Positions 42,851-64,000 of a stretch of 64,000 bases of DNA are shown here, in pieces. Source of the DNA: Sphagnum compactum (lineage: Eukaryota); contig OZ234493.1 in the NCBI GenBank assembly GCA_965153455.1, forward strand, positions 31,672,213 to 31,736,212. Direction: 5' to 3'. Made by a program: the position numbers and the translations under genes. The notes below the pieces were generated by a model. That model did no database searches, was not told where the DNA came from, and was given only the letters and a program-made list of their open reading frames with translations. Positions within the stretch are counted from its first letter, which is position 1. Every line of letters starts with the position of its first letter.

Positions 42851-44839
42851 TCAAGAACTCAGTGCAGGCCTCTTCAAGTTGGCTTTCAGCCTCTCAACTG
42901 CAGTTCTCAGTGTTTCCTCGTCCTTGCAAAATGCAAACCTCACCAAGTCCTTGCCATTCTTTGGATCAATGTAAAACGTACTAGGAGGAATGGCAGCCAC
43001 CCCCACATCCTCAATCAAATGCTTACAAAATGCCACATCATCTTCATACCCAAATGCTCTATGATCTACCATCACAAAGTAAGTGCCCTCAGGTTCAAAG
43101 ACCTTGAATCCAACACTCTTCAAACCCTCAACAAGGATATCCTTCTTGGTGCGGTAGCCACCAATTAACTCCTGGTAGAAAGAATCAGGTGCTGACAGTG
43201 CAGCAACAGCTCCCCACTGAAATGGTGCTGATGTTGAGAAAGTCAAGTAAGAATGGGCCTGACGAAGCCCCCAAGTAAGATGAGGGGGTGCCACTGCCCA
43301 CCCAATTTTCCACCCCGTCAGAGAGAAAGTTTTCCCCAATGAATTCATTGTGACTGTCCTCTCATACATTCCATCCAAGGAAGCTATTGACACATGCTCC
43401 CCTGTGAAAACAAGCTTGTTGTAAACCTCATCCATAAATGCAAGGGCGTCATGTTTCTTACACAAGGAAGCAATGAGCTCTAATTCCTTCCGAGAGAATA
43501 CTTTACCAGTTGGGTTATGAGGGGTATTCACTAAAATTGCTCGTGTCTTATTTGAAAAAGCAGTGCGAAGCTCCATTTCTGGGACTGCAAAATCTGGAGG
43601 CCGTAAAGTGACAGTTTTGACTGTTGCATCTGCCATAGCCAAAGTGGCTAAATAAGAGTCATAGAAGGGTTCAAACAGGATAACCTCGTCCCCTGGATTG
43701 ATGAGACCTATAATGGTGGCTGCAATTGCCTCAGTGCAACCAGATGTGACGGTGACTTCTGTTTCGGAGTTGACAGTTATCCCACTTTCCTTCTTGAAAC
43801 TTTGTGCAATAGCATAATTAAGCTCAGGAATTCCAAAGCCACGTGCATATTGGTTCATTCCATCCTGAATGGCACGGATTGCAGCATCCTTCACAAAATC
43901 CGGACCATCAAAATTTGGAAACCCTTGGCCCAAATTCACCGCCTTATGCTTCAAAGCAAGGATACTGATCTGTGTAAAAATTGTGGTCTTGAACTGCTCC
44001 AGACGCTTTGACACCTGTTCGGCCAAACCAGATGAGCCATAAAGTATGTGTAGTGGAGCACTTATGTATGTGCTACATAATTGTTCAAGGGGTTGACATT
44101 CTGAACAAACTATGCACATAGTTGGAAATTACACACTAGTTACACACTAAATATTGGATGCTCAGATCTGGAAGGTAGTCTGCCACCACACTTGTCTTCC
44201 CCTCAGTCTTGCAAAGGGAACAATTTTGATCCAGATACACATATCTATAACATTGCAGAGAAAACTCCACAACAACACTTGTAAGGTAACCTGACATCAC
44301 CATCACCTTCATTTATAAGCAGCAGTGATGATGAGCTGCCATGAATCCATTGCTGACTTGATCAGCTCCTGACCAACTGACCGACAGTGAGTGCAGAGAT
44401 AAGTATATATAACAATCTGCCCGATATTGTCAGGAAAACGGTTATACAAACATCTGCATCCCTGAGTTTCTGTCATATTTCCGGATACATAATGCACCAT
44501 CAAGCCATTCCATATGGATATGCACTTTCTGGGCATCCTCAGCTATTTCTAAAACGTTGACCAAACCCAAAAACCCAGGTAGATTGTTCCTGGGAATTTT
44601 GTTCTGCAGCTTTTGAGAAAACGACGAGTATCAGCTTCAAAAGGCAGGTGCTCTTCGAAGATGCAAAACCCTGGGAAGCAAGAAAAAAAACATATAAAAG
44701 CCAAACCCTGAGAGATACGAGAAGACGCAACTGTGTGGTCAGGAAAAATAACCTGGAGTGCAGGAGAAGCGTCCACAGGAACAGGGGACGAAGATGGTTT
44801 GGGAACTCCATTGTCCGTTGCGGTCGACACAGAGGCCAT
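42851..44839 (-). CDS. PLP-dependent aminotransferase class I/II (kynurenine/glutamine/methionine transaminase-like), 2 exons, 416 aa from first AUG
   Basis: Exon 1 44839-44753 (MASVSTATDNGVPKPSSSPVPVDASPALQ|gttatt); exon 2 44014-42851 (VSKRLEQFKTTIFTQ...INLGQGFPNFDGP...NTPHNPTGKVF...DEVY...NSLGKTFSLTGWKIGW with PLP lysine...VRFAFCK). Confidence 0.95.
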
Positions 44840-45992: not shown

Positions 45993-47399
45993 TTAAGGTA
46001 CAAAGCCAGAAAATCCATGGGCAGTGGCAGTAGCTTTGCTGCCGTCGCCTTCTTGAGAGTATCTGTTGTACGGGCAGAAAGCAATACTCTCTGAGTATCC
46101 CATGAATAAATGCTATCGATTTTTACACTCATAAGTAGTACCTTCAAAGTGGGGTGAGTTCTGAAAGTAAAGCACACCTTTGGCTCACCCTTGGGTGTGC
46201 ACTTACTTCTAAAACTCCCTATTACTCACCATGGACGGGCCATATCTGTAGCCTGGGGTCAGTTTCCACATTGACAAAACAAATATTTATTTTTTTAAAA
46301 TAATGAATTCGTTATTAAAATTTGAAATTATATAATTTTTCATCATCTATTAATAATATTTTGATATAAGCAGTCAAATTATTCAAAATGTCACCTACAA
46401 TAATTTGATGATTTTTATATAATAGTTAGGTTTTTTCAGCCTTTTTTATTTGAATTACCCAATTTTTGAACTTTGATTTTTTGATATATTATAGTGAAAT
46501 TTTTTTTTTCATCTGTGAATTATCATATTTTCACAATATTTCATTTCATTATTTTGAGGATTATTTAATGACAAAACTGACCTTAGGGTAAGACATTGTA
46601 TTTTTTCAGTGTAATTCCCTCATCGGTTTAGAGTAGAAGAATTCTTGGGAGAAAACATGAAATTTGTTTGCCTCCCAAGTTAGGAGGAAGAATGTGCCCC
46701 ACTTTTTTTTTTAAAAATCTCTCTAGTGCTCAAAACCCCTAGGTATTAGATATTTCCCTCAGTTTAAAAAAAAAACTCTCCCGGGCTTCCTCTCCCCCTC
46801 GTTTTATTTCCTTCTTTTGTTGGGTAAAAAAAGTCTCAAATGTGACCAATTGTCAAGTCCTCTATTACATTTGCACTTTGTGCTGCTTCGTACTACTACG
46901 AATGATGATAATTAAATTGTTTTGTGTGGAAATAAGAATTTTGTTGTAATTAATTTTTTTAAATAAAATTTTATAAATTTCACTCTATGTCATTTTGTTC
47001 TATTAATATTTTCTTACATTCTTGATTTGCTAGGCAAAATGTCAACAAAAGTTCAATTCATTATAGAAAGTCCACAACTATATATAAACAAACCCAAAAG
47101 AAAAAAACATTGAAAGGATATAAATCAAACAACAAGAAACAAATAGACAAAAACATTGAAAAGGTGCAAAAACACACAACAAAATACAAACAAACCAAAA
47201 AAAAAAAAACCAATTATAAAAATAAAATTTGATCTGTCATGAATTATAATCCAAAATGATTCTGAAATTGTCACAATGACAATCACCAAAATACCCATCC
47301 TACATAAACCAGTTCTAATGAAACATCGTTATTGAAATTCAATTAGTGTAAAAACTAGCCCTGTAATAGAGGTTTGGTATATGGTATGTCAAATTTAAT

Positions 47400-47810: not shown

Positions 47811-49464
47811 AACCTTAGTCAATATTGAAAAGCACATGCTAATTTATCTTTTCGTATCCATGTAGTTAGTGGTGGGTAGGTGAAAAGAGTGAAATAATTA
47901 TGAAATGTTTTACATAATTGTCATATGGATGATCATATATAATTATTAAGTTGACAATCATTATTAATGTTCTCATATTTTGTGAGGATCATCAATTTTG
48001 GTTCTCTCATAATATTTTAGGAATTGAACCAGTTCTCACAAATATAAGACTGGTTGGTTCTCAAAGGTGATTCTCACAAGTCAGTTATCAAAAGGTCAAT
48101 TATTATATAAAATGATTTTATTTTTTAGTTATAATATTTTTTATTAAAAAAAAGAACCAAGTTACAAATAAGAAAAATTATATTTCCAAAAAAAATTTAA
48201 AAATCAACAACAAGAAAAACTGGACAACACAATCGAAAAAATTAAAGTAACACAACAAAAAAAAAAAAGTTGACCATCTACAAGAAAAGCTAAAGCCCAA
48301 ATAATAGCAAAAGGAGCCAAGCAACAACCCAAACAACAATCTTTAAAAAAACTCTCAAACACACTATATTCTTTATTTAATATACTACCTAATTGCACAC
48401 AAACACAATCTCAATTGCAAATGTTATATGCTAGATACAAGGATATCGCAAGGGATATTTACAATATCCTCTGTGTTAGATGGATAGGTGGATGTGTACA
48501 TAGCTCAATATCACACATCCTGGTCAGTGGTTTCTCCAAAGGGATTCAATATCTATCCATGAAGCAAGGTAGTTTTGTTTGTTTTTGTTTTGTACTTATA
48601 AGATCCACCGAACAGGGATGCTTCAGATCGTGCTATTGGTCTCTTTGGAAACCTCTTGAGGAGGACTCGGGGTGCATCAGCCACGTTTCATGGTGTTTGG
48701 ACTTGTGGTGCAAAAGTTTTTGAAATATTGAATGATTTCTTCACTGAAAATTAAATTAAATTAAATTGTAACTGAAATTTTCGGAGGAATTGGAATGTGC
48801 CTTTGGTGTTGTTGGAAAGATCTTGATGAGCAGGATTTTAATGGATTTTTATTTGGTCAGATTTGGATTCAAAATGTGGGAGGTAATTGATTTTTAAGCG
48901 ATTTGTGTTGCTGAAAATTCAAATAAATTCCAAAAAAACCAGGTTTTGGAAGGAAAAATCAGTTGAGAACGCAGTAACACTGGCTGGAGTGAACCAGCAG
49001 GCACCAATGCACCTGTTGAGGATGAGCCCATTGAAGCCGTTTTGGGGATGAACCAAAAATCCATCCTCCTTGCCCGCAAGTATTTTTTTTTTTTCACCTC
49101 TTTTCTGCCCCAAAATTTTCCCCCTCCTACCTCCCCCCTCCTACATACCACCTCCTACCTCTCACTCCATCGCCAGAGCTCGAAAGCCGTCGAATGGGAT
49201 GGGAGGCTGGAGCTGGATCACCAGAGCTCTAGAGCCGTCGAGCAGGAGGGGAGGCTAGAGCTGCCGTTGTTTCAGCCGGGCTACCACTGCAGCTGCCATT
49301 GTTGGAGCCGAAGAGCTGTCATTGTTGGAGCCAGGGAGCTGTCGTTGTTGGAGCTAGAGCCCCTCAAGCGAGACCCACGCGGGACCCAGAGCGGGAACTT
49401 CAGGTAAGCTCCCTCCCTCCCTCCCTTCTTTGTTTTGTTGCAACATCTTCTTCTTTTTTCTTGC

Positions 49465-50160
49465 AACGCAGAAGGCGACGGCAGCAACATTGCCGTCGCC
49501 TTCTTCTTTTTGTTTTGCTGCAGCGCAACGAAGAAGGCTTCTTCTTCTTCTTGTTTCTTCTTCCAGCGCAGAAGGCGACGGCAACAACGGCAACAACAAC
49601 GTTGCCGTCGCCTTCTTTTCGTTCTACTCCAATGCAGAAGGCAACCGCAGCGTTGTTGTTGTCGCCTACTTCATTTTGTTTTTCTTCTTTTTTCTTGCAG
49701 TGCAGAAGGCGACGGCAACTGCCGTCGCCTTCTTTTTGTGTTTTGCTGCAGCGTAGTGAAGAAGGCAACGGTAGCAACTACCATCACCTTTATTTTTTCT
49801 TGCTGCAGCATAGAAGGCGACGGCAACAACTGTTGTCGTCGCCTTCTTTTTTTCGTTTTGCTACTACGTAGAAGGCGATGGCAACATTGTTGCCATCGCC
49901 TTTTGTTTTTTCTTTCTTTGCAGCGCAAAGAAGAAAGCAACGGCAACAAAGCTACCGTTGCCTTCTTCTTCTTTTTTCGTTGTAATGCAGAAGGCGTGTA
50001 GCGCAGGAGGCGACGACAACAACTTTGTATTGAAGAAGAAGAAGACGACAGCTTTTATCACCTTCTTTGATGGCTTTGCTGCCAGGAAATGGCGACCTTC
50101 GCCTTTTTTTGGTGGTTTTGCTGCGAAGAAGGTGACGGTAGCAATGTCGTCACCTTCCTG
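49465..50160. repeat. Array of ~9 palindromic units AGAAGGCGACGGCA(n)TGCCGTCGCCTTCT inside the MULE
   Basis: Units near 49470, 49570, 49636, 49704, 49760, 49812, 49870, 49931 and 50126, separated by T/C-rich spacers. They lie between a donor (cag|gtaagc, 49403/49404) and an acceptor (tttag| at 50255). Confidence 0.85.
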
Positions 50161-50269
50161 TATGGTGGCGGTTTTATTTTATTTTCTTTGTTGGTGCTAA
50201 TGGTTTAGTTCATTAGGATTAACAATTAATAGTGAAATGGTGGTTTTCTATTTAGGGTTGACGGTTGTA

Positions 50270-51865
50270 ATGGCTAAGGGAAGGAGATTGAAGAAAAGTG
50301 GTGGTGGTGAGTTGGAAGTCCAGAAGCAAAATGTTGTTGCGTCAGATGAGGCAATTGTTGGGCCAAATGTTGCTACAAGAGATGATGCAATTGTTGAGGC
50401 AAATGTTTTTGTATCAGATGCAGCAATTTTTGAGCAAAATGTTGTTGCATCAGATGCAACAATTGTTTAGCAAAATGTTGCTACATAAGATGCGACAATT
50501 GCTTAGCAAAATGTTGTTGCATCGGATGCGGCAATTACTGAGCAAAATTTTGTTGCATCAGATAAAGCAATTGCTCAGCAAAATGTTGCTGCATCAGATA
50601 AAGCAATTGTTCAGCAAAATGTTGCTGCATCAGATGACGCAATTGGTGACCAAAATGGTGCTCTATCATAATTGAAACACAAGGATGATAGTTTGTAATA
50701 TAGATTGTTCTAGAATTTATGGACATTAGATTAAATACAGATTAAAAAAATTGTACAAGTTTTTTGAAATTTAATTATATCCGCACCTTCCATCATTTGT
50801 TGGAAGGTGCGGGATTTTTTTTGTCAAAATTTTTCTATTGCAATACCTGAAAACAGTTCATGTTTATAGGAGTCGTGTGTGATTATATGATTTTATGTTT
50901 TGTAATACCTGCATTCTGTTTTTTGAACTCTCACTTTTTGGTTTAGGTCCGAAACTTGAAACTGACCAGGCTTCTCAGCCACTAGCACCCCCTTGTCCAC
51001 CTAATTTGGCTCAGAAGGACAAAGAATGGACGAAGGTCGGGTCGAAATGGAAATGTAAAGTTAGCACTTACATTGTCGCATATTGTGCCAAATGGTTGTT
51101 GACCAAGCATTTGAAGGAGGTGCATGGCTTGGTGGCAAAAAAGGCCAAACCTGGGAGGCCTTCAACTTCTGCAAGAGGTCCTCGACATCAAGACCATGCC
51201 AAAATGAATGCTCGAATCTTGGGAAATGCCATGGTTGTGCAAAGGCGGAATGATCAAAAGGTTGTTAGTCGCGCTCGTGCCAAAGCATAGTGTGAATGGA
51301 ATAACCTGGTAGCTGTTGCAAAACAGTGTCCACCATTCCCAAAAGCAGCTTTGGTCAAATTAGCTTCAAAGTAATTGTTGAAGGTGTTAGCCTTAATGCT
51401 TGGGGCGTGGGCAGTGTGCCTCGAGATGCAACATCAAGGATGGAGAAGGATGAATATTTACAAGGGATGATTTGATCCACCCGTTGTGTGTATGCACGAC
51501 AATTGAAGATGGCATGGGATGTCAAAAATTGGGATCGAGGGTCTAGTAAAACAAGTCGGACAAAACAGTTGGCAGATGTTTTGGATTTTCATGAATTTAG
51601 AATGATTCATGAAAGGTAAGAAATAATAATAATCAATATTTTTTTTTATTATTGTATTTCATCCAAGGTGTGTTAGGGTTTAATTTGGTGGTTTTTGGGT
51701 GTTTATACGGTTCAAGACAAAACAAAGGAAGAGTTTGTTGCAAATGCAGTTCAGGTTGAGATGCGACGCCGCCATTTTTACACTGCTCGTCATGCAGCAA
51801 AGGCTGCAAATGCAGCAGCTGTATACCGAGCTAAACACGGGATTGTAGATACTAATATGGTTAAG
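50270..51865 (+). pseudogene. MULE accessory gene (disrupted): N-terminal 12-aa acidic repeat, C2H2-type zinc finger, GRP motif, unknown helical C-terminus
   Basis: Exon 50270-50657: MAKGRRLKKSGGGELEVQK + ~9.5x EQNVVASDAAIV. Phase-1 GT-AG intron, then exon 50947-51615: WKCKVST[Y]IVAYCAKWLLTKHLKEVH..AKPGRPS..HQDHAKMNARI..; then exon ~51710-51865: VQDKTKEEFVANAVQVEMRRRHFYTARHAAKAANAAAVYRAKHG. Several TAG/TAA/TGA stops and a frameshift near 51390. Confidence 0.75.
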
Positions 51866-52319
51866 GTTTCACTTTATATAATTAGTTAGGATTTTTAACC
51901 CTTTTTTTTTGACTACCCAATTTTTGAACTTCGATCCTTTTATATGTTATAGAGAACCAACGTTTTTTTTTCATTGGGTTCTTTAGTAATTTTTGATGCA
52001 CCCATTTTTGTACATCTTTTATCAATATAATAATATCTTCTACTCACACTTGTTTGATGGGTATATGGTTAATCATATATGTTTTCTTTGTCATAATTTT
52101 TTTAGTACTTGAGATGTAAAAATCAAACCTTAAATAGGCCCATATGAATAGGTAACATTAATTTGTCTAGGGTCTACAAAGATCAAAATGAACATTGTGC
52201 AATATTTACATCTAATATAATAGGATTCACATCACTTAAAGACTTTTAAAACAATACACACATTTTAAACATATAATACCTACATCATTTTCTATTATAA
52301 ATTCCATAAGGTCATTTTC

Positions 52320-53045
52320 AAATATGCAATACCCGCATATAAGTCCTAAAATAACCGTTGGCATTTTGCATTCATTGCAATACCCGCATATAAGTCCTAA
52401 AATAGTCGCTGGCATTTTGCATTCCTTGCAATACCCGCATATGGGCCACAAATATTCGCTGGCATTCTACATTCGTTGCAATACCCACATATGGGTCCCA
52501 TAGTAGTCGCTGGGTTCTTTTACATTCCTTGCAATACCCGCATATAGGTTCCATAATAGTCGCTGGTTTTTTAGATCTCTTGCAATACCTGAATATAGGA
52601 CCTATAATAGTTGTTGGTTTTTTACATTCATTGCAAAACTTACATTTTGTCATAAAATTAATTCAGAATAATAATTAATTTAGGTATATAAAAAGACATA
52701 TTTTGGGTACCCATACCACTTATTAGTTATTTTGAAATGACGTTACATGTGGGTATTGCATTCAGGGTTTAGGGTCTTCACATAAAGTTTGCCTCAACCA
52801 CCTATGGATTATTTCAATATGAACTTGCATGTAGGTATTGCATCTAGGCCTTGGTCTTCATTCAAAGGCGCACCCAAATTACATATTGGGTATTTCAAAG
52901 TGACCTTACATGTGGGTATTACATTTAAGGTTGCCCTTTCATTGTAGGTTTTACGTTATTCACGTATGGGTTATTTTGAAATGAACTTGAATATGGCTAT
53001 TGCATTTAGGGTTAAGGTTTCATATAATTTTGCAATATCCACACA
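52320..53045. repeat. TTGCAATACC-motif tandem arrays (left cluster): ~51-bp x6 forward, then ~80-bp-period reverse units
   Basis: gcaatacc at ~52326, 52377, 52428, 52477, 52531 and 52582; then gg(t/c)tatt(g/a)cat units near 52752, 52834, 52915 and 52996. Confidence 0.85.
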
Positions 53046-54764
53046 CGTACTTACTTTCACCATTTACAAATTTAGCCTTAATTTTTTTAATAATTAAATA
53101 AAATTTGTAACAAAACACAAAAGAAGGTATGTTTTTTACCATTTGTTAATCTCCAAGCTGATTTCTTTCAATTTCTTTTAAAATGTGTATTGCATTGTTT
53201 TGCATATAAAATTCCCCTTATAATGCATCGTAGATTTATTTTATTTACTATGAACTTGTAAAAAAAATGTTAATTAATTTAGGGTTTCCCAAACTCTAAA
53301 TTTGAATCATATTCCAATAGTATATACTTATAACAATTATATGGAAAAATGTGCTTTCTCTTTAATAAATTCTTTTAGTTCAAATTTAAATGTTATAATA
53401 CAATAAAGATTAGACATTAAACTGTCATAAATGCTTATTAGGCTTACGTGGCCTAGGCTAGTATATTACCTATATAACTAGTATGTTTACTTAATAAACT
53501 CAACCACCTTCAATACCTACATAGACCATCTAAAATATTAACCTAGAAGGCCTACACTAATGAATAAACTACATAATAGGCCTATATTACGTAGGTAGCC
53601 TATTAGGTAGTTAATTAGGTTACTTAACAAATAGTTTACTAACCTATTACTCATGTTTAGGTTAGGTTGTTTAGTTTGGTCAATGTTGAAACTTTAGTCA
53701 ATCTGACAACCTTAGGTTTGAACTTTTGTTGAAGCTAGTAATTTGTCAAGGCTATAGATTCTTAGTTGTTTTTTTATGAACACTATTGTGTTTTTTGGAT
53801 AGTCAAGTCATTTTTCAACTTCTGAAGGTGTCGAAAACATTACATAACAACTTGGCCCTCACAAAACTTTTAAAATCCACATAAACTCTGGCATGACGTC
53901 TAAGAGCTTATGAACAATTTTCATAGCTAGCTATTAATTTTTTGGAATTTTTAAATTTGCATTGAAAACAAAGTTCATTAAAAAATAATTGCAATATACG
54001 TAACCATAGGTGTTTATATATATATACTATAAATAAATATGAAAATATTATATGTATTGAAATGGATCAACAGTATAATTCCATAATATCATTACTTATA
54101 TATTATGTGGTATAAAATATAAAATATTTTTGACCCACTATATGATTATTTTAACCAAAAACTTATTTACTATATATCAAAAAAATACAAAATAAAATTT
54201 CAATCAAACATAGGATTAATATGTGGGAGAGATCATTTTTATTATTATGTGAAACAGGAAAAAAAAACTAAAAAATTATGTGCTTTGATTTTTTTTTAAA
54301 CATAGTTTAAAATCTTATTAAATTAGAGACTTTATATTTATGTTTTTTGAAATGAGTATACAACTTTAAAAGGGGAAAAAATATATATGAACATCTTTGA
54401 AGAAATTTTAAGCTTGAACTTTTTATTTTTTGATCTCGACAAACTTTGTATTGTATTCACAGTTGGGTTTTCACATAAGGTTTGTTTCTTACCTTTGTGT
54501 GATAACTTCAACTTAATTTTCCCAATCTTTTTGAAAAAGATATAGAATGAGATTGTATTGTTTCACATATGTCTAAACCCAAAAAATTCCCCCCCAATTT
54601 AATATAAAATATTTTTGATAATTAACGAATTATCAACAAATTTTGTCATATAATTAAATAATTAATATACCATTATTTCAGATAATTTAAATGATTAATT
54701 ATCAAGAATTAGATAATCATTTATTTATTTAAAATAATTAACTAATCATTTGGCTTAACTTGGA

Positions 54765-55262
54765 GTGACCCAAAATGTAGGTATTACATTTAGGGTAGGA
54801 TCTTCATTTAAAGAGGCTTAAACCCCACATGCGTACTTTCAAAGTGACCCAAAATGCAAGTATTGCATTTAGGGTAGGATCTTCGTAGAAAGAGGCTTAA
54901 ACCCCACATGCGTACTTTCGAAGTGGCCCAAAATGCAGGTATTGCATTTAGGGTAGGGTTATTTCAAAATGACTTTGCATGTGCATATTGTGTTTAGGGC
55001 TAGGTCTTCACTTAAGGGTATCCAAACCATTTAGATGGGTTTTTTTGAAGCGTGGATATTGCATTTAGGCTTGTTTTTTCATTTAAACTTGCAATACCCG
55101 AACTTATACTTACCTTTACCAACTAGATTTTTGGGGTTTCATTGCAATACCTACATCTGTACTTACTTTTACCAACTGGAATTTTGGGGCATAATTGCAA
55201 TACTTGCACTTGTACTTACTTTTACTAACTGGGATTTTGGGGCCTAGTTACAATACTTGCAT
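54765..55262. repeat. TTGCAATACC-motif tandem arrays (right cluster): ~80-bp reverse units then ~52-bp forward units
   Basis: gtgacccaaaatg(t/c)a(g/a)gtatt(a/g)catttagggtagg x3 (54765-54960); tt(g/a)caatac x4 at ~55089, 55142, 55195 and 55248. Confidence 0.85.
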
Positions 55263-55481
55263 TTAACACTAATATTATCATTATCCTTGTGTTTTTGCAT
55301 TTCACACTTTTTGTGCTTATTACTTGGAAACAATAATAACCTTTGTGCCATATTAGACTTCATGTGTGTGTTGAATACATGATGTTCAAAGAATTTGGAC
55401 ATGGTTTCCTCCATACAAAATTGATTCTAAAACAAAATTCTTAGTGCCAATGGCTACAATCTTGATTAGTAATTGAAACAT

Positions 55482-58176
55482 TTATTCGTGACATCGTTTA
55501 GTACGTACATTTGTGTGATTAAGCATTGTTTCATGCCAATCTTTGAGCCATTTGACATTATTTCCCAATCCATCTTCTATACGACATAACACCAATCTTG
55601 GGTGTAAAATGGCATTTGCCTTTGTGAGGCGTATGTTACGAATATTACATGCCAATACTCTCATGTGTGAAGTGGCATGTTCACAAAGTGTCACATCGCC
55701 TTCTTTACGTTCATTTGTGATCTCTTGCATTGTAGTGACCAATTGTGCAAGAGCCCTTTCCATTGGGGTTGATGAATTTATTGTGTCATTAGACCCTACA
55801 ATGGCACCCATAGGGAGATCATTTTGCTCCATGTTCATGAGCCCATCAAATTCCATGATCCCATCATCACCTTAAGATGATCATTTTCGTCATCATCATT
55901 GGACTCCATATCATCTGGAATATGTCGTGGGTCTGCAAACATGTGACCCAACCCTCCACGATGTGATCCATACCATGTTCCACAGTAATGAATGATATCC
56001 TCTTGAGAAATGTCTATGCATGTGAGAATGACCACAATTTGGTGTTTACACATGTTCCCTCGCAATGCCCATTCGCATGTGCAACAAAACATTTCGGTGA
56101 ATGGGAATTTCACCGTGTAAATAACATTGGGAAGGCGTTGGCTCCATACGGCCCAAGCTCCATCATTTTCAAGGGTTGGTTGGTACACATGGGTGAGTGG
56201 AATAAGGGCTGTCTTTTCCACACTTCATGTAATAATGGCCTCCATAACCTTGTTTTTTATGAAACCCTTTTTTTTCATTTCCAATGTGTGCATGTAGTGG
56301 CGTGTAATGGTTGTTGTTAATCACCACACCAACCAGTCAATCCTACACCCTCTAAGGCCTTTTGTGTCAAGAGCAAGCCAACGTTTCAATGCACCATGAT
56401 ATGATTCAATGCTCGCTTGGGTGTCTTGGTTGGAATGGAGCACTCTTCGAACACCCACCATCCATAATTCTGCAAACATAAACACAATACATAAGGATGA
56501 ATAACATTATACAAAGTAATTTTGAATGTTAAACCATGAGAAATATTATCAATTACCAAACTGATGGTAATAAGTCCAGAAATAATTTGTCCACACATCA
56601 CCAGGCCTATGTTTATGAAAGCTTTCTCTCACAGCAACCCTCCCACGCTCTTTGAAGTCATCAATTGTTTCTCCATGATTGATGGACATGTACATCACAT
56701 CATGAAGGTCTTGGAGGATTCCACCCTGCACTTCCACATCTTTGATTTTTTCAGTACCACGTAAGCGCCATGCTTTGAGAACATGCCAACAACAAAGGTA
56801 GATGGGAACCTTGTCCATACCCCATACGACCCTAGTAAGGACACATATGCAATAAAATCTCCATGAATGGATGGGGTTAGTACAACATAAAATGCATTTG
56901 AAGTAATCAAGAATTTTATGAAAGATATTAAAAAACATTTAAGGAGATAAACACAAAGTCGATACTAGGTATGAAACTAACCGTAATGCCTTCAATTCTT
57001 GAGGTGCATCATCAACGAAAAAACATGATGGTTTCCAATGTGGCATGTGTGATAACATCTTCTCTTTTAATGGTTTCAACCATTCGATCAAATCTTGAAC
57101 TGTTTGCCTACTTGTAATGATCCAAGTTAAAGGGACACCCGTGCGATGATCATCAAACCCCATCAAGGTGAATAGATGGAATTTCATGTCATTTGTGCCA
57201 AATGTGGCATCCATATAAATGGCACCATTATGACCATATGATAGCATGGACTCACGTTGAGTTGGTGTTTGAATACCTATGGTGAATGGGACTTGAGTCC
57301 CGTTGATTTCACTAACATTTTGGAAAAAGAACATATCTTCCGGATGTTGGAGAGCCCAAGACTGACTTGAAATTGCAGGATTGGTGTGTAAATGCCAACT
57401 CCTTTTCTTATGTTTCCAATCCAAATATGCAATGTCTTGAAGCCGAATGAAATCATCTCGTGTCATGCTTTGACCCGCATTCACACGTTCCCACCAAATT
57501 GCTTTATGTTTGTCATATATTTGTTTGGTCGTGTAACTTAAGCTTAGTTGGGCCCATATGTGGTCCTTCAATGCTTGTGACATGCATGGAGCATAACGAG
57601 ACATAGGAGAAATGGACTCCGGGTCATGCTCACCATGTGCGAATGACCCATCAATTCGTGTATGGGCCTTATGATAAATTGTGATCTCAGCCACATTAGG
57701 TCGTGTGTATAAACGTTTGATTGATAATGACGCTAGGCATCCTCGTTTAATAGATCGAATGTGGGTTGAATTTTCTTGATAGTCCTCTGGTCCATATCCG
57801 CATTGATACCTAGACCAAAAAACTTTCAAAACGTAAATGATTACATCTTTGGTATATGAATTAAAGAAATTAAAAAGGTTAATGCCATAAATGTTTACCA
57901 TGTATGCCCGAGGTGGTTTTTGATAGTTGGTTGCTTGACATCCGTTTGGCTTGGAAAGTTTTTGTAAACATTCCATTCCACAGGGGTGCTTGTATCCCCT
58001 CGTTCACCTTCCAAGAATTCCGAGATGCGAGCATATGGAACATAAGCAAATTGAATGGTCACTTTATTTTGCCCTCCATGGCGTATCCCAGACGTCCACA
58101 CCAAATCTTTGTTTGAGAAAGGGGACTTGGTGGGGTTTTGGACATGAATGGAATGGGACTTTGGAACCCTTCCCAT
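55482..58176 (-). pseudogene. MULE transposase with N-terminal Cys/His domain, DDE core and SWIM finger (4 exons; 2 nonsense mutations + frameshift)
   Basis: Exons 58176-57899, 57809-56982, 56831-56557 and 56469-55482 join in phase. Motifs: WYQCGYGPED..KRGC..YHKAH, YMDATFGTN (D1), FFVDDAPQE (D2), LCCWHV (CxxH), DTQASIESYH (E), CTCEWALRGNMCKH (SWIM). In-frame TGA at 56323-56321 and 56227-56225; frameshift near 55870. Confidence 0.9.
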
Positions 58177-58494
58177 GATTGAAGGAAGTAGGACAAATTC
58201 CTGCACCAAGAGAATTTATAATTCTATAAACATTCATCATTGAACAAAAACCCAAAATGCAATACACACATGGCTCCTTTAAAATCAATGTTGTGACTTG
58301 GAATTCCCATTCCAACACCCATATCATGATATAAAATACCTATTGTTCCAATGTACATAATGTACAATACTTGCATTATGAACCCATATACTAAAACAAA
58401 CTTTAGCAATACCCACATTGAGCTATTAAACCTCCCATCATTGAAAATGTTCACATATGCAATACCGGATTGTACTTTAAACCCATAATGTCTG

Positions 58495-59743
58495 AAAACC
58501 CCATGTAGCAATACCCATATAATGATAATGATAATTAATGCACATTGTTTGAGAGGTGCAAAATGCACTACCTGCCTTAAGCCATAAAACCCACACTGGT
58601 TGTGGGTAGTCAATGCATTATTCGCATATGGGTATGAAAAAAAAACTACAAAGAGATATTGAATATGAAATATCCGTGTAAAGGTATAAAACCTTTATTT
58701 ATGGTTGTATACTTAATGAAACTTGACGCCCTTTCTATATCCAATAACTACGAAATGAAAAGAGGTTGAATTGTGAAAATATAAACAAAAAAACAAAAGA
58801 AGTAACATGAGACAAATGTATACCTTTAAGAATAAAAGATGACAACGTTCCACCAAAGTTTATAGTCCTAATTAAAAATGCAACCCTAAAAAATCATAAC
58901 TCGTACAAAAATGGGTTAGAAAACATTAAATTCTAGCAACTATGAACATATGGAAACAAAGGAGATTCATAATTATGGTATAGATCTAAACAAGTGAAAA
59001 GATCAAAAATCAATACAATGAGCAAAATTTAGAGTATAAACCTTAGGTTCTGAAATATATGAACCAAATTCCTATACACTAAATAATAAAGCATAACCCT
59101 AAAAATCCAAATGATATTTTGTAAAACCCCATGTAGCAATACCCACATAATGATAATTAATGCACATTGTTTGAGAGGTGCAAAATGCAATACCTGCTTC
59201 AAGCCATAAAACACACACTGGTTGTGGGTAGTCAATGCATTATTTGCATATGGGTATGAAAAAAAAACTACAAAGAGATATTGAATACGAAATATCTGTG
59301 TAAAAGTATAAAACCTTTATTTATGGTTGTATACTTCATGAAACTTGATGCCCTTTCTATATCCAATAACTAGGAAATGAAAAGAGGTTGAATTGTGAAA
59401 ATATAAACAAAAAAACAAAAGAAGTAACAAGAGACAAATGCATACCTTTAGGAATAAAAGATGATAACGTTCCACCAAAGTTTGTAGTCCCAATTGAAAA
59501 CACAACCCTAAAAAATCATAATTCATACAAAAATGGGTTAGAAAATATTAAACTCTAGCAACTATGGAACATATGGAAACAAAAGAAATTCATAATTATG
59601 GTATAGATCTAAACAAGTGAAAAGATCAAAAACCAATATAATGAGCAAAATTTAGAGTATAAACCTTAAGTTCTGAAATATGTGAACCAAATTCTTATCC
59701 ACTAAATAATAAAGCATAACTCTAAAAATCCAAATGATATTTT
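58495..59743. repeat. ~625-bp tandem duplication upstream of the transposase
   Basis: aaaaccccatgtagcaataccca...aaaaatccaaatgatattttg occurs at ~58495-59121 and ~59123-59743 with scattered substitutions. Confidence 0.9.
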
Positions 59744-61358
59744 GACATAAGCCTTATTACAACCCTAATAAAAAAAAGTCTTAGTGATATATGCCCTGAA
59801 CCCAAAAAACTATAAAAACTATACAAATTATATAATGCAAAATACGTTAATCTTTAAAAACAATCAAATAAATTTCATACAAAACCAAAAGAGAAGATAT
59901 GTCTTTTGCCTTTGTGTGATCTCTCCAACTTAAATTTTTCCACTCTTTTTGAAGAAGATATAGAATGCTATTGTATTACTTCACATATGTGTAAACCCTA
60001 AAAATTTCCCCCCAAATTTAGCCTACTTTAGATTAATTACTATACATTTGTGAAAAATTTATTAATTGACTTATGTGTCTCAGCCCTAAACTTAAACCAT
60101 AATCCAATAGTACATACTTATAATAATTACATGAAAAGAGTATTGTAATGTCCATTCATAAATTAGGTAAACAAAATTTAGTAGGATTGAAGGGGGGGGT
60201 GGGGGTGGAAAAAGTGAGTAGGTAGTTAGCTAGGTGTTTGGCTATGTAAAAAACATAGATAGATAGGTAGTTAGGTAGATAAGCAAGTTAGTAATAAGAA
60301 ACAAGTTACTTTATCAAGGTGATTAGGTTTGTAAAATACTTATGTCAATAGGGTGGTTGTGTATGTAGGGAGGTAGGTCAATAGGGTAGGTAGTTAGTAT
60401 AGTGGTTAAGTTAGTAGGGTACATAATTAATAGGGTAGCTAGGTTAGTAGGGTAGGTGGTTAGTACAATAGCTAGGTCAATAGGATAATTAGTTATTAGG
60501 GTAGCTCTGTCAATAGGGGATAATAAATAAGGTACCAAGGTTGGTGCAGTACTTATGAGGGTAGAAAAGTGAGCAGGGTAGCTATGTGTGAGGTCAGGTC
60601 CAGGGAAAAACGGCCAAGAACCAAAAAAAAAAGTACAATGGTCAGCAGCAAAAAGAAATGGATTGTGATGAACCCCATCCGGCGCCGAATGAAAAAACGC
60701 AAGGCATCCAATGGATAGAACGGCCAACTGGTGCATTGGTGGCTGCTAGTTCACTCTGACCGGTAACACTTGGGCCAACAGCACAGGCCACACTAGTTGG
60801 TAACTATTTTGGAGTCTTGGGATGGTGAAACAGTTGGCCGTGTAGGTGACATATGGTATTGTAGTTTGACATTAGCTTAATATAATTTGCAACTCAAATG
60901 TCAAACCATGATATATATATATATATATAACATAAATTTCAAATTGCAAATGAAATTGTGACAGATGACAAATAATATAAAAGTTTATTTATGCAAAAGA
61001 TGAGTGTTTAAGAAGTTTAATGTGTGGCATAATTTCATGGACTTAGAATTAATGAATGATAATTTATGTTCAATATAAATGAAAAAGATGAATAATTCAT
61101 CCATTCTCCTTTCAAATATTGAAGAGGTTGTGCGAGGAGGAGCTTTGAGCTCATTCTCCTTTTTCATATCTTCATGTTATTAATTTATCATTGAGCATTA
61201 TAATAAGACTTTTGCATGTAATGAATGTAATATGTAAAAAATTTATTTATTGTTATGATTGTGAAGGCATCCCACAAAGGAAAGGTAATATGAATTTAGC
61301 AAGAGAGTGATCTCCATAAGGCCCAGGTCTTTAGGCATGATGTGTGTGATGAGCACAT

Positions 61359-61394: not shown

Positions 61395-62465
61395 GGGAGC
61401 TAGCTCATCACATGTGTCCAAAGACCTTGCTTTATGGGGATCACAAAAGAAACTCGCATAAGTTTTTTCCTTTGAATTTATAATATAATAATTCATGAAT
61501 GGAGCTTTAGTTTGCACCAATAATCCCAGTGGACGTTTCCAGCCTCCCGAGGGCGCCATTCCAGACCAGAACGGCAAACGGAATGGAGCCGGTAGCTGGT
61601 CGTTTCCGAGAACGGTGATGGCGGTGTCTGATTCCTCTTCTTCCTCGGTTTGGTCTTTTGGTACGTGAATCCCTCTTCCTCGCCTCGGATCGGATCGCAT
61701 TTTGTTTTTTTTTCAAAAATTCTCTGCGGCAATTCCTACTTCAATTCTCTTGTTGTGATCCGGATGAAACCTGTGATCTCTACTGTTTGTTTGTTTGTTT
61801 TTTTTCTCGATTCCTTCTTCGCAGGAAAATTGAGGGTGAATTTGTGTACAATAGCGAGCTCCTGTTTCTTTTCCCTTCTTGTTCGGGTTGTTGTCGTTGT
61901 CGTTGCGAAAGGAGGAGAAGGACAACGCCCTGACACGCGGCAGAAAAGCAGTAGGACTTCTTGATGTTGCAGGTGATGATGGTAGAGAGCGAGAAAGAGG
62001 AAAGTGTCTAGCTTTCTCGAGAAGCAAAATCCGAGATGCGAAAGAGTGCGAACACTTGCACTCGGGATTTGAGATGCGAATTTGAGATTGAAGAATTTTG
62101 CGGGAAGAGGAGGATCGATCTTTCTTTGTTTCTTTTTTCTGAGGAGATCAGTGAGATATCGAAGGTGCTGTTACCAGAATCAAAGGATGATGCCTTCTTG
62201 AACGTCATTGGCGCTCTTTGCAATGCGATCTTTGCAATCCTTCGTTGTTCTCCAGAATATTGTTACCATTTCCGTGCCGCTGCATCGTTGCCTCCTCCTC
62301 CTCCTCCTCCTGCCTTTGGTTTGTTTTTCCATGACGACGACGACGATCCGATGCGCGGATCTGGAAAGCCGGATCCGGACAGAAAGTCAGGAGTCTTGAC
62401 CAGAGGCGCGCCTGCAATGTTGCGCTCTTGGAATTGGAGCTGAATTCGCGGTGAGAAGCTTGGAG

Positions 62466-64000
62466 ATGGCATGGAGAGGCCCTGCGAATAACAACCTCGG
62501 AGACGATCTCTGGAGCCTGTCTTCGTTGCTGTTTGCATCTGTAGACCTGCTCTTGGTTTCCTTAGTGTTCCTGAGCGCTGTATTCACTTTCTTCACCTCA
62601 AGCTTCATACGAATATCTGGCCTGCACATTCCTTGCTCATGCTTTGCTGCTCGTCACCGTCTTAAGCACAGACGACATCGGGAGATGATGACAGCAGTAG
62701 CAGCCCGGCGAAGCAAGTCATCGGTCAACAATAGTAGCGGCAACCAAAGCGGCGGAAGTCGGCAGCAATCCTCTGCGGGAAGAAAAATGGAAGAAGTCTC
62801 CTCCAATGCAAGTTCTGGACTTGACAACAACAGAGAGCTTGAAGAGAATGATGAGAATGAACGCCTATTGAAAGCTCTTCGAGATGAGCGTGAGGCGCAA
62901 GCTGCGTTGTATCACGAGTTGGAGAAGGAGAGAAACGCTGCAGCAACGGCTGCAAACGAAGCGATGGCAATGATAACGCGTCTTCAAGAAGAGAAGGCAC
63001 TTGTGCAGATGGAAGCGCGGCAATTCCAGCGGATGGTGGAGGAGAAGACGGCTTACGATCAAGAAGCGATGGAGATTCTCAAGGAAGTCCTTGCAAGAAG
63101 GGAGGAGGAGAAAAATCAGCTTGAAGACGAGATGAGGAAGTGCAAAACAAAGCTACTTGGGAGGGACCAAGCTACAGTTCCAGAAAGAAGAAGAAATGAG
63201 ACAATGCAGCCAGGGTGCAGCAGCAGAGATACTGAAGACAGTGAACTTTTCCCAATCACAACTGCTGGTGTAACAACCAAGAGGTCGACTGCAAGAGCAG
63301 CAGCAGCAGCTAGGGAGACCGAGAAACCACAAGAGGCAGACTCGGTTATCAGCCTCAAGAAGAAATGGGACTCTCAGGGTACTACCGAAGAAGAAGTATT
63401 CCCTGATCAGAACAAAGGTAAGGAACCCCCTCTTCCTCCAGCAAGTTTTTCAGAACGAGAAATAGAAGAGAAGAGGCTGTCAGTGTTAGAGTATGTGTGG
63501 AAATTCGAGGAGCAATTGCATCATCATCAGCAGGGAGGTAGACAACCTCCTTCAGCTCCAACTGGTAGTAGACCTAAAAGTGCTGGTGATGAGCAAAGAT
63601 CTGAAGATGAAAGGAGAAGAACCATGTGCCACCACTCAGAATCATCACCACAGAAAGCTGCAACAGTTGTCTCTGGCAAACTAGAGAAAGAGGAAAATCC
63701 GGGCGAAGATGGTGAAACATGCAGGTCGATGGGTTTAGGGTTCCTAGCAGAAGCTGTTCATGGGGAGGAAGATGATCTGTTCGTGCAGGATATTTATGAA
63801 GTGCATAATGCATCTCATCATGAGCCTCCTAGTGTTGTCATGCAAGACACAGAGGAGGACTGTTGGGGTTGGGACTCCAGGATAAGACATCAATCAGACT
63901 TGGATCGACCAGGGAAGCTCGACCTTTTGATCTTGCATGAGGAGGAAACACGAGATAGTACCAGAGAAGATACCCACTGTCATCACCGGAGTCAAAATGT
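62466..64000 (+). CDS. GTD-binding (Zein-binding/DUF593) myosin-binding protein (MyoB-like), 3'-partial
   Basis: ATG 62466 opens a frame with no stop to the window end. N-terminal TM segment WSLSSLLFASVDLLLVSLVFLSAVFTFFTSSFIRISGLHIPCSC; GTD-binding coil LYHELEKERNAAATAANEAMAMITRLQEEKALVQMEARQFQRMVEEKTAYDQEA; later VQDIYEV. Absent from the ORF track because it has no stop. Confidence 0.92.
   Translation, partial: MAWRGPANNNLGDDLWSLSSLLFASVDLLLVSLVFLSAVFTFFTSSFIRISGLHIPCSCFAARHRLKHRRHREMMTAVAARRSKSSVNNSSGNQSGGSRQQSSAGRKMEEVSSNASSGLDNNRELEENDENERLLKALRDEREAQAALYHELEKERNAAATAANEAMAMITRLQEEKALVQMEARQFQRMVEEKTAYDQEAMEILKEVLARREEEKNQLEDEMRKCKTKLLGRDQATVPERRRNETMQPGCSSRDTEDSELFPITTAGVTTKRSTARAAAAARETEKPQEADSVISLKKKWDSQGTTEEEVFPDQNKGKEPPLPPASFSEREIEEKRLSVLEYVWKFEEQLHHHQQGGRQPPSAPTGSRPKSAGDEQRSEDERRRTMCHHSESSPQKAATVVSGKLEKEENPGEDGETCRSMGLGFLAEAVHGEEDDLFVQDIYEVHNASHHEPPSVVMQDTEEDCWGWDSRIRHQSDLDRPGKLDLLILHEEETRDSTREDTHCHHRSQN

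Follow-up and report, generated by a model that had tools for sequence, protein, structure and literature searches.

The 64-kb window of Sphagnum compactum DNA analysed here (the whole stretch, 64,000 nucleotides) contains a decayed Mutator-like element (MULE), in whose non-coding DNA one short core motif, W-TGCAATACC-YRCAT, about 14 bp long, is repeated in arrays. We propose that these core arrays are putative clustered binding sites for a regulator encoded by the element, which would make it an analogue of the VANDAL/VANC system standing outside that family; judged from the sequence pattern, we give this reading a probability of roughly 45%. We infer from the same pattern that a protein binds the core, which protein this is and what its binding does.

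The available parts of two reports describe Arabidopsis transposon regulators with amplified targets, namely VANC of the VANDALs, TnpA of Spm and the AtMu1c transposase (PMC5735166; 10.64898/2026.08.24.746577). If our proposal is true, a moss uses the same architecture with an unrelated zinc-finger protein, so that the strategy would arise repeatedly, and the moss element would provide a second independent system for transposon self-specificity and for the role of tandem-repeat turnover. To our knowledge, such regulator/array systems are known beyond Arabidopsis only from a few other angiosperm cases.

A dead MULE with a transposase and an accessory gene

The host element is a MULE, as the original prediction had it: it encodes a transposase with the MULE domain PF10551, carries terminal inverted repeats (TIRs) and is flanked by a 9-bp target-site duplication (TSD). 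Its parts, arrays apart, are the following.

48973..48981, unstranded: left target-site duplication, AGTAACACT; homology to related copies begins at 48982
48982..60761, unstranded: whole Mutator-like element, 11,780 bp, a decayed copy, delimited by related-locus coverage
48982..49035, + strand: left terminal inverted repeat, beginning GGCTGGAGTGAACC
49400..50000, unstranded: palindromic repeats of the left subterminal region, AGAAGGCGACGGCA...TGCCGTCGCCTTCT; core motif absent
50270..50672, + strand: accessory exon 1, starting MAKGRRLKK, with 3 in-frame stops; end approximate
50945..51617, + strand: accessory exon 2, with C2H2 finger, KPGRPS basic stretch and helical domain; 5 in-frame stops
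51700..51860, + strand: accessory exon 3, limits approximate; the ORF 51677-51889 is conserved in related loci
55482..58200, - strand: transposase coding exons, ATG at 58176-58174, introns 57807-57895 and 56470-56556; two in-frame stops
58201..58823, - strand: probable transposase 5'-UTR intron, containing the U cluster of cores
60366..60518, unstranded: right subterminal array of 33-bp TAGGGTAG-type units, without the core motif
60708..60761, - strand: right terminal inverted repeat
60762..60770, unstranded: right target-site duplication, GGTAACACT

The related copies used for comparison are the best 80 of 526 transposase relatives found in one scan, from which 61 non-redundant loci were analysed; these loci are metagenome contigs, possibly mixing several moss species. 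Their coverage rises from 4 to 20 at the left end, 48982, and past 60761 it falls from 27 to 10 and then 2. Empty-site forms occur as contigs with 48958-48981 joined straight to 60762-60773. The two TSD copies of the window, AGTAACACT and GGTAACACT, agree at 8 of their 9 positions. For the five loci whose two ends could be paired, the match is 9/9 in L052, 7/9 in L054 and 5/9, 3/9 and 1/9 in the others, and at least one of these three poorly paired loci (L058) lacks a TIR at the inferred right end. Each TIR arm is some 50 bp long; a 32-nt stretch of the left arm is 91% complementary to 60725-60756, and the element ends GGCYAGAGTGAAC are common to related loci. A word of the left subterminal repeats, AGAAGGCGA, was counted 69 times where 1.0 was expected.

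The window copy is dead, with in-frame stops in the accessory and transposase genes, and therefore nothing works at this locus today. Besides the 526 transposase relatives, the family comprises 460 accessory-protein clusters, and intact ORFs occur. Transposase introns of the family are spliced (GT..AG, minus strand) in RNA-library contigs from two independent data sets. Since the family is abundant, with intact ORFs and spliced transposase transcripts, the hypothesis is directly testable.

The MULE domain of the transposase was recognised at E = 1e-7 (32.7 bits, cut-off 27.6; 56939-58003, minus strand), and in the moss homologue P0048, which UniRef names a SWIM-type domain protein, at E = 8.1e-12. 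A SWIM-like CxCxnCxH pattern, CCTCEWALRGNMCKH, is visible in the transposase, with no Pfam SWIM match at E <= 0.01. The 5'-UTR intron is called probable from a joint of 58199 to 58823, GT..AG on the minus strand, found in runs X15/X16 and X17 with anchors of just 27-30 nt.

The element also codes for a zinc-finger accessory protein, as had been anticipated. This protein consists of a basic N-terminus, a 12-residue tandem repeat, one C2H2 finger, the KPGRPS stretch and a helical C-terminal domain. In the window, exon 1 holds about nine of the 12-residue repeats, corresponding to a 36-bp array at 50325-50662. The finger of intact members, CKVGTC-IVAY-CAKWL-L-TK-H-LKEV-H, fits C-X4-C-X3-Y-X5-L-X2-H-X4-H, with the conserved aromatic and leucine positions in place; in the window copy the second cysteine has become tyrosine. 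Seven of 44 accessory relatives match zf-C2H2 (PF00096; best E 1.8e-4) and two of 44 match Zap1_zf1, while a Pfam search of P0075, the window ORFs and distant relatives (E <= 0.1) gave no accessory-protein match. In the AlphaFold2 model, residues 41-80 have pLDDT values of 91-96 and include two strands (45-48, 51-54) and one helix (66-77). Foldseek against the PDB returned nothing for this model at E <= 0.001, and weak C2H2-finger rows at E 3 to 8. The predicted DNA-contact residues of the finger helix, which in our alignment are A, W, L and K (Zif268 numbering), are more hydrophobic than those of typical base-reading fingers.

The core motif and its arrays

Cores and arrays are arranged in the window copy as follows.

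50839..50909, + strand: two cores in the accessory-gene intron, just 5' of exon 2; 50839-50847 exact, 50901-50909 reading TGTAATACC
52325..52636, + strand: A51 array, TRF 51 bp x 6.1, with 6 exact + cores
52709..53082, - strand: B80a array, ~81-bp units (52709-53013) with - cores, then one 53-bp-type unit at 53030-53082
53100..54760, unstranded: middle segment between the duplicated array blocks, with no exact core
54764..55070, - strand: B80b array, 79-bp units with - cores; TRF 54764-54957, 79 bp x 2.5
55089..55261, + strand: C53 array, TRF 53 bp x 3.3, with + cores
58258..58572, + strand: U cluster, cores at 58258, 58311, 58405, 58458, 58507 and 58564
59117..59745, unstranded: 622-bp tandem duplication, second copy (the first being 58495-59120), with cores 59135 and 59186

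Part of the middle segment, 53130-53700, is similar to the right subterminal region.

Exact TGCAATACC occurs 14 times in the window, always within 50839-59194, where 0.53 would be expected and none of 100 shuffles reaches 14. Exact TTGCAATACC occurs eight times (0.23 expected), all at 50838-55151. With up to one mismatch to TGCAATACC the window holds 43 sites against 16.6 expected, and the element, at 18% of the window length, accounts for 30 of the 43. The claim of more than 20 copies is thus right for sites with at most one mismatch (30 in the element) and too high for exact ones (14 in the window). The remaining 52,221 bp, which are genic sequence, contain no exact core, in agreement with the original remark that no clustering of the motif was noticed elsewhere in the window.

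The same preference is seen across the family. An unguided scan of the 61 related loci ranked GCAATACC first among 8-mers, with 260 occurrences (8.5 expected) spread over 53 of the loci, and GCAATACCC first among 9-mers, with 162 (2.2 expected). Core density is 0.62/kb in element-homologous DNA and 0.057/kb outside it, an 11-fold difference, so the motif is indeed commoner within the family than outside. Nearly all mapped core sites (255 of 258) lie in seven non-coding site classes, and an exact core is present in the consensus of 33 of 134 TRF arrays inside elements, against 2 of 78 outside. The core-bearing array types keep constant positions among copies, with ~2 to 12 units. The A51 position is occupied in 16 locus arrays of ~2 to 12 units each, C53-type arrays number 36 (148 units), and the L060 copy has a different, 206-bp core-bearing array where B80b and C53 stand. 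In the diverged L054 element just 14% of 9.2 kb could be aligned to the window by blastn; it has 4 exact and 8 one-mismatch cores; of these 12, 11 share a strand and one occupies the corresponding intron of the accessory gene.

TRF and repeat alignment recovered all the predicted arrays (~51-bp, ~80-bp reverse and ~52-bp units) near the positions proposed for them. The two ~80-bp arrays, described as separate, are both real, but their spacers align (z = 5.6), and B80a and B80b are paralogues from one segmental duplication. The accessory-gene intron site foreseen at ~50838 is the exact core at 50839-50847, and a second one follows at 50901-50909; both are exact in the majority sequence of related copies. 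Sites had further been placed upstream of the transposase. Cores do occur there, at 58258-58572, but within the probable 5'-UTR intron 58201-58823, while 59135 and 59186 are present as mere doubles of 58507 and 58564 through the 622-bp duplication. This duplication is private to the window copy: the segment is single in 38 of the 38 related loci that hold it. Core 58311 is present in the family majority sequence only. In the U cluster neighbouring cores stand 49-57 bp apart, in one case 94 bp, and the flanks are mutually unrelated, so that cores and a ~53-bp phase are kept with spacers randomised. The nearest cores to the element ends are 50839, 1,857 bp from the left, and 59186, 1,567 bp from the right.

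The original observation that spacers differ while the core is retained was borne out. No alignment could be made between the spacers of four unit types, namely the 51-, 53-, 80- and upstream 51-bp ones (z 0.1-0.8), and the 28 window cores fall into 10 flank groups whose likeness to one another is at the level of random pairs (null 0.288 +/- 0.064). Beyond the selected 8-mer, these groups agree at T or W (-1) and at YRCAT (+1 to +5).

Conservation of the core and candidate binders

Arrays without binding function would be slippage-expanded, satellite-like repeats, with a core shared through common descent or gap-repair patch copying. Such an origin is in line with conservation inside the arrays, where neither A51 (82 units) nor C53 (148 units) shows higher conservation in the core columns than in those of the spacer. 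The original prediction expected the core to outlast its surroundings among copies too. In the multi-copy alignment this holds at A/T positions, where retention shows a slight excess (0.960 in the core, 0.917 elsewhere), but not at C/G positions (0.809 and 0.809), so that the expectation came close to failing. Moreover, decay is uniform along the element, B80a and B80b are plain paralogues and the 59117-59745 duplication is a private accident. Neutral decay is what dead copies should show, and thus the weak core-versus-spacer conservation does not discriminate in favour of this neutral origin. What speaks against it is that the 9-mer and further positions are common to ten flank groups that are otherwise random, and that the core reappears at equivalent places in largely unaligned L054 DNA and in the novel 206-bp array. 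Retention of the 9-mer, with 0-1 mismatches, across ten random-like flank groups suggests that the active lineage has been under selection for the core, or else that the same 14 bp were repeatedly seeded by an unknown route. We consider a purely neutral origin of the arrays improbable.

Local hypomethylation over the arrays, also anticipated, found no support from CpG and transition decay, which is an evolutionary proxy for methylation in copies that may simply have been silenced. In A51, B80b, C53 and the U region CpG retention lies at 0.36-0.41, and in the transposase exons at 0.44 (B80a offers 3 consensus CpGs, mostly unalignable); in A51 it is 0.41, with non-CpG transitions at 0.153, the latter being 0.091 in the exons. 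Transitions are not reduced in the arrays. As CpG retention and C-to-T decay in the arrays match those of the exons, there is no trace of long-term protection from methylation.

This result would also fit arrays that are enhancer-like clusters of host-transcription-factor sites, amplified for expression in a favourable tissue or condition. Tandem cis-elements in some retrotransposon LTRs are a precedent. The same sequence signs of a constrained cis element apply to such clusters, and the core has stayed constant while the accessory proteins of the subfamilies strongly diverged, as predicted if the binder is a slowly evolving host factor. However, outside the family the core is near-absent, also in the 52 kb of genic sequence of the window, although counting a 9-mer tests this point weakly. 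Most cores lie between the 3' ends of the genes or in introns, with none in the left subterminal DNA, 5' of the accessory gene, and the element's own DNA-binding-type protein would be left without another proposed role. Host-factor clusters seem to us unlikely, if less so than a neutral origin. If the arrays were neutral or host-factor sites, the element would be an ordinary MULE with internal satellites, well annotated.

The core might instead be bound by a putative N-terminal DNA-binding region of the transposase, the arrays being an auto-regulatory or trans-activating platform or an aid to assembly of the transposition complex. A MULE transposase alone binds and activates cognate copies sequence-specifically, according to the available part of one report (10.64898/2026.08.24.746577), and in the moss element the U cluster lies within the transposase gene's own probable 5'-UTR intron. 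The transposase is better conserved than the accessory protein, and the core is constant among copies whose transposases are 64-92% identical. The inner TIR holds CACCAATGCACCTG, which is core-like with 3 bases missing and may be chance. But the AtMu1c peaks described in that portion are at TIRs (10.64898/2026.08.24.746577), whereas here no core is found less than ~1.5 kb from the ends. The subterminal repeats are other sequences than the core, and a Pfam search of the transposase N-terminus detected no DNA-binding family. We regard the transposase as the least probable of these three alternatives.

We favour the reading in which W-TGCAATACC-YRCAT would be a cis element for a sequence-specific DNA-binding protein acting in trans on the copies of the family, most likely the element's own C2H2 accessory protein. 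Its putative sites are concentrated in the probable transposase 5'-UTR intron, accessory intron 1 and the 3.5 kb that separate the two convergent genes. Local site density could move up or down as the ~51-53-bp and ~80-bp units duplicate in tandem, cognate copies would be singled out by a high density, and binding would activate the transcription of these copies or counteract their silencing.

In a stronger version, which we find doubtful, a bryophyte MULE would have independently evolved a VANC-like module. Its single-finger C2H2 accessory protein, with a fast-changing tandem peptide repeat, would read W-TGCAATACC-YRCAT arrays in introns and intergenic DNA of the element and derepress or demethylate cognate copies only, with KWLLTK and KYNLVQ/KYNLVW helices paired with different motifs in sister subfamilies, as part of a convergent, ancient strategy of plant DNA transposons. 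The finger helix reads KWLLTK in the window family, KWLFT* in the motif-keeping L054 element and KYNLVQ or KYNLVW in distant subfamilies, the finger-versus-motif comparison covering one subfamily pair. If this version were true, anti-silencing with co-evolving arrays would not be peculiar to eudicot VANDALs.

Comparison with known transposon regulators

VANDAL21 and its protein VANC21 form an Arabidopsis anti-silencing system, as far as the available texts describe it (Hosaka et al. 2017, PMC5735166; Sasaki et al. 2023, PMC10398659). VANC targets lie in introns and upstream DNA and undergo tandem-repeat gain and loss, and the protein carries tandem peptide motifs, according to the accessible part of the first report (Hosaka et al. 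2017, PMC5735166). The moss element resembles VANDAL21 in being Mu-like with a transposase and an accessory protein, the latter composed of a conserved domain and a variable tandem-peptide part. In both, a motif on the 9-bp scale is enriched in the family, in introns, near the 5' end of the transposase gene and in intergenic DNA, and is tandemly repeated with a repeat number that varies between copies. The suggested VANC-target-like pattern therefore stands as far as it is family-specific, non-coding, arrayed and variable in copy number, but does not extend to the protein, which has a single C2H2 finger and lacks DUF1985/DUF287. The moss host, the different motif and the occurrence of cores in both orientations (reversed in B80) are further differences. 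The moss element also has TIRs, and its decay proxy lends no support to hypomethylation. VANDALs are described as lacking TIRs. Membership in VANDAL/VANC was ruled out, the recurrent Pfam matches of the accessory protein being only zf-C2H2 (7/44) and Zap1_zf1 (2/44).

In PIF/Harbinger elements the second ORF encodes a Myb-like DNA-binding partner, which attaches close to the element ends and brings in the transposase for transposition. The moss element is likewise a DNA transposon with a second ORF of DNA-binding type, its site recognition being putative, but internal tandem arrays like its own are not known from the PIF/Harbinger system.

The En/Spm (CACTA) protein TnpA recognises a 12-bp motif arrayed in both orientations in the subterminal regions, beside the TIRs. 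The moss element shares with this system an element-encoded regulator apart from the catalytic transposase and a short motif repeated both ways, although here binding is putative; superfamily and protein differ, and the subterminal repeats of the moss element are other sequences. Subterminal arrays of CACTA type, which lie no more than a few hundred bp from both ends, were ruled out, as the nearest cores stand 1,857 bp (left) and 1,567 bp (right) from the ends. The available part of one report treats TnpA as a regulator (10.64898/2026.08.24.746577).

The same text, as far as it is available, describes the AtMu1c transposase as binding and activating cognate copies, with peaks at TIRs (10.64898/2026.08.24.746577). 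AtMu1 has its sites in the TIRs and, in that account, no accessory protein, while the moss element has internal sites and a finger protein. Common to both would be a MULE whose own protein binds and activates cognate copies, putatively so in the moss, and non-autonomous relatives share the sites.

Core motif arrays in the window and in the element family

A family-wide system of non-coding motif arrays is real in this moss Mutator-like element (48982-60761), and from its sequence features it is probably a protein-binding platform. The 9-mer TGCAATACC, the core of a form of about 14 bp (W-TGCAATACC-YRCAT), occurs 14 times exactly in the window against 0.53 expected, a number reached by none of 100 shuffles; TTGCAATACC is found 8 times (0.23 expected). 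All 14 exact sites lie between 50839 and 59194, where the original prediction had located the motif. Allowing one mismatch raises the number to 43 (16.6 expected), 30 of them within the element; the motif is thus present more than 20 times, as had been claimed, at one mismatch but not as exact matches. TRF and a repeat finder recovered the same arrays that had been listed by eye.

Core arrays in the window
52325-52636: A51, 51-bp unit, 6.1 copies (TRF)
52709-53013: B80a, reversed units of about 81 bp (repeat finder)
54764-54957: B80b, 79-bp unit, 2.5 copies (TRF)
55089-55261: C53, 53-bp unit, 3.3 copies (TRF)

Both of the expected arrays of about 80 bp are present, but they are paralogues arising from one internal segmental duplication. 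Similarly, the sites at 59135 and 59186 exist, but they are second copies of those at 58507 and 58564, produced by a tandem duplication of 622 bp that is private to the window copy (the segment is single in 38 of the 38 related loci that have it). To our eye the 51-bp and 53-bp units seemed homologous over their full length, but this was rejected, as their spacers aligned with z = 0.1 and 249 of 500 shuffles scored as high. A hairpin or siRNA precursor formed by the opposed B80 and C53 cores was also discarded, the complementary stretches being just about 31 nt at 77%. No Rfam match in the window came near its gathering score, and the weak miRNA-like rows fell in the left palindromic repeats and in a coding 36-bp array, outside the motif arrays.

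Relatives were collected from metagenome contigs with the largest transposase exon as query. The best 80 of 526 were kept, and 19 of these were dropped as near-duplicates, since a longer locus contained over half of their 31-mers, leaving 61 loci. The proposed concentration of the k-mer in the element family was borne out on these metagenome loci, with 204 copies of TGCAATACC in 327 kb of element-homologous DNA against 14 in 246 kb of other DNA from the same contigs. In an unguided k-mer scan of the 61 loci, the highest-ranking 8-mer was GCAATACC (260 against 8.5 expected, present in 53 loci) and the highest-ranking 9-mer was GCAATACCC (162 against 2.2). Nearly all mapped sites (255 of 258) fall within seven non-coding classes, namely the accessory-gene intron, A51, B80a, B80b, C53 and two in the transposase 5' region. 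According to TRF, array types and positions are constant across loci and unit numbers differ; the consensus contains the exact core in 33 of the 134 arrays within elements and in 2 of the 78 elsewhere. Same-strand cores are spaced by 50-53 bp in 180 of 415 cases, by 101-106 bp in 49 and by 79-81 bp in 40.

Short stretches of the window at 46400-46500, 21000-21300, 35600-36000 and 16000 also align to related loci. The first of them, to which 23 loci align, resembles 51902-51956. These stretches are probably fragments of the element's family or other repeats.

Constraint on the core

The core stands out from its spacers in the comparison between site classes, but barely if at all among copies and within arrays. 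In A51 (82 units) and C53 (148 units) the core columns are not the best conserved, and variation falls at C and G. Measured against the family majority, retention of C/G in the core is 0.809, equal to that of other non-coding C/G, and retention of A/T is 0.960 against 0.917 elsewhere; the higher core identity seen in one comparison is partly an ascertainment effect. Copy-to-copy conservation would therefore be weak evidence at best for constraint, and the test is low in power because the copies are dead and expected to decay neutrally.

The local hypomethylation predicted over the arrays left no trace in CpG and C-to-T decay, which we used as a proxy. The CpG retention of A51, B80b, C53 and the upstream region is 0.36-0.41, B80a having too few alignable CpGs to be included, against 0.44 in transposase exons, and C-to-T decay is uniform over the element. 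Since arrays and exons decay alike, long-term methylation protection of the arrays is not indicated. In all parts of the family, C-to-T and G-to-A changes strongly exceed A/T transitions (9-16% against 1.5-6%) and CpG retention is about 40%, a pattern that is the signature of long-standing cytosine methylation of the copies.

Between site classes the result is the opposite. Sorted by flank, the 28 window cores form 10 groups, between which flank similarity does not exceed that of random pairs (null 0.288 +/- 0.064, threshold 0.444). Nor do the spacers align between A51, C53, B80 and the upstream 51-bp unit (z 0.1-0.8), which agrees with the original prediction that spacers differ while the core stays. 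The 9-mer is kept with 0-1 mismatch in all flank groups, which also have in common positions outside the selection, W at -1 and YRCAT at +1 to +5. In the cluster upstream of the transposase (58258-58572), cores keep a phase of 49-57 bp and the spacers are randomised. A diverged element in the related locus L054, with 14% of its 9.2 kb aligning to the window, carries 4 exact and 8 one-mismatch cores in that length, 11 of the 12 on one strand and one in the equivalent accessory intron. Another locus (L060) bears a different core-containing array of 206 bp where B80b and C53 would be. We take this comparison between classes as strong sequence evidence for constraint. This leaves selection on the core in the active lineage, or some other process that repeatedly seeded the same 14 bp; that the arrays are neutral satellites seems quite improbable.

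Element genes, candidate binders and the VANC parallel

Transposase features
55482-58200, minus strand: transposase coding exons (spliced forms in RNA-library contigs)
57807-57895, minus strand: transposase intron, GT..AG (spliced RNA-library contigs)
56470-56556, minus strand: transposase intron, GT..AG (spliced RNA-library contigs)

Spliced transposase forms were found in RNA-library contigs of two independent data sets, of which one was apparently filed twice (runs X15 and X16) and the second is run X17. Contigs also join 58199 to 58823, with anchors of just 27-30 nt; this is probably a 5'-UTR intron of the same gene, and it would hold the upstream core cluster. Among the RNA-contig matches listed, there were no accessory-gene splice joints. 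The host is a moss: the closest named homologue of the transposase is from the moss Ceratodon purpureus (39% identity), and 35-39% of the sampled words occur in runs labelled 'moss metagenome'. Two angiosperm proteins, from Lonicera and Punica (P0052 and P0054), show 31-33% identity over about 80% of the exon, the latter without a MULE Pfam match, and may be domesticated derivatives.

The accessory and transposase genes are convergent, the former being on the plus strand. Accessory exon 1 codes for MAKGRRLKK and then for some nine repeats of 12 residues, which correspond to a 36-bp array (50325-50662) that is open in two frames; TRF counts 9.4 units here and 2-4 in related loci. From exon 2 come a canonical C2H2 finger (C-X4-C-X3-Y-X5-L-X2-H-X4-H), a basic stretch (KPGRPS) and a helical region. 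Relatives of the protein number 460 at cluster level, with 65-92% identity, and 272 in the 50% library; Pfam gave no family except zf-C2H2, in 7 of 44 relatives. An AlphaFold2 model is confident over the finger only (pLDDT 91-96), and Foldseek returned nothing for it at E <= 0.001. The ESM Atlas pointed to DUF6589 clusters (score 0.92), for which the 44 relatives gave no HMM support. One hit of the representative search, a 1,818-residue PAS histidine kinase (P0323), was a spurious match. The window copy is dead, because both genes carry in-frame stops (two in the transposase, three in accessory exon 1, five in exon 2) and the second finger cysteine has become tyrosine.

We propose that the arrays would be clusters of sites bound by a sequence-specific protein that acts on cognate copies, the most likely binder being the element's own finger protein. 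We give a probability of roughly 45% to binding of the core by this element-encoded accessory regulator. The finger helix reads KWLLTK in the window family and KWLFT* in the diverged L054 element, which keeps the motif; it reads KYNLVQ or KYNLVW in distant subfamilies. A tblastn search with 149 diverged accessory proteins against window and related-locus DNA yielded one diverged element, that of L054. The constancy of the core across diverged subfamilies speaks for a host factor as the binder, which we nevertheless consider unlikely. Binding by the transposase is very improbable, since the core sites are internal, unlike the peaks at the terminal inverted repeats (TIRs) of AtMu1c.

The parallel with VANC, the accessory protein of Arabidopsis VANDAL Mu-like elements, extends to architecture and not to membership. 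According to Hosaka et al. 2017, the VANDAL21 motif lies in introns and upstream DNA, tandem repeats are gained and lost among copies, and VANC21 contains tandem peptide motifs. The moss element matches this architecture in motif placement, repeat turnover and peptide repeats, and its 36-bp coding array, which varies in unit number, is reminiscent of the variable peptide repeats of VANC proteins. However, the moss accessory protein has neither the DUF1985 nor the DUF287 of VANC, the element has TIRs, which sets it apart from VANDAL, and its cores stand in both orientations, a difference from VANDAL21. For these reasons we do not place it in the VANC family: by this analogy the system is to be likened to VANC but is not a VANC system. 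VANC is not known outside eudicots. A literature search for the motif string gave only unrelated primer-type matches, and no relevant paper turned up on zinc-finger accessory genes in MULEs of mosses, in both cases among the matches listed.

Element ends and insertion site

A 32-nt inverted repeat, 91% complementary (48987-49018 and 60725-60756), suggests that the element ends at 48982 and 60761, where it is flanked by AGTAACACT and GGTAACACT. These ends are confirmed by three observations. In blastn of the window against related loci, homology begins exactly at 48982 (coverage 4 to 20) and stops at 60761 (27 to 10 to 2). Contigs from public runs join 48958-48981 straight to 60762-60773, and are empty-site forms of the repeat that received the element. 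Finally, a 9-bp duplication is also seen at two other copies, perfect in locus L052 and 7/9 in L054; three other end pairings gave 5/9, 3/9 and 1/9, at least one of them (L058) without a TIR at the inferred right end. Together with a Pfam MULE match above cut-off (PF10551, E = 1e-7), the confirmed ends identify an 11,780-bp Mutator-like element.

The element is inserted into another repeat. Its flanks (48500-48981 and 60762-60850) show very high contig depth, many contigs link them without the element, and the left flank is matched by 3 loci. Both TIRs have an inner part (49005-49018 and 60725-60738) that reads CACCAATGCACC(T/A)G and resembles the core AATGCAATACCTG minus ATA, which may be a chance likeness. 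The left subterminal region (49400-50000) consists of palindromic repeats, AGAAGGCGACGGCA...TGCCGTCGCCTTCT, with weak MIR821-like Rfam rows far under gathering; AGAAGGCGA stands second among the family's over-represented multi-copy 9-mers (69 against 1.0 expected, 22 loci). If the ends bind transposase or form hairpins, these repeats would be likelier than the core to do so.

In the right subterminal region, a 33-bp array of TAGGGTAG type (60366-60518) is conserved across many loci, and a similar stretch lies inside the element (53440-53660). The resemblance of 53130-53700 to 59894-60520 suggests that part of the right end was duplicated into the interior. One contig joins 55225 to 59771, an internal-deletion derivative with the arrays kept and the transposase gone, and a 4.3-kb copy (L054:7314-11618) leads from the transposase directly to the left end, the arrays and accessory gene being lost. 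Beyond the element, two regions noted by eye look like flanking host genes: an aminotransferase-like intron-less ORF of 425 residues (42851-44128, minus strand) and a gene whose product has a coiled-coil region of myosin-binding (GTD-binding-like) type (62400-63998, plus strand).
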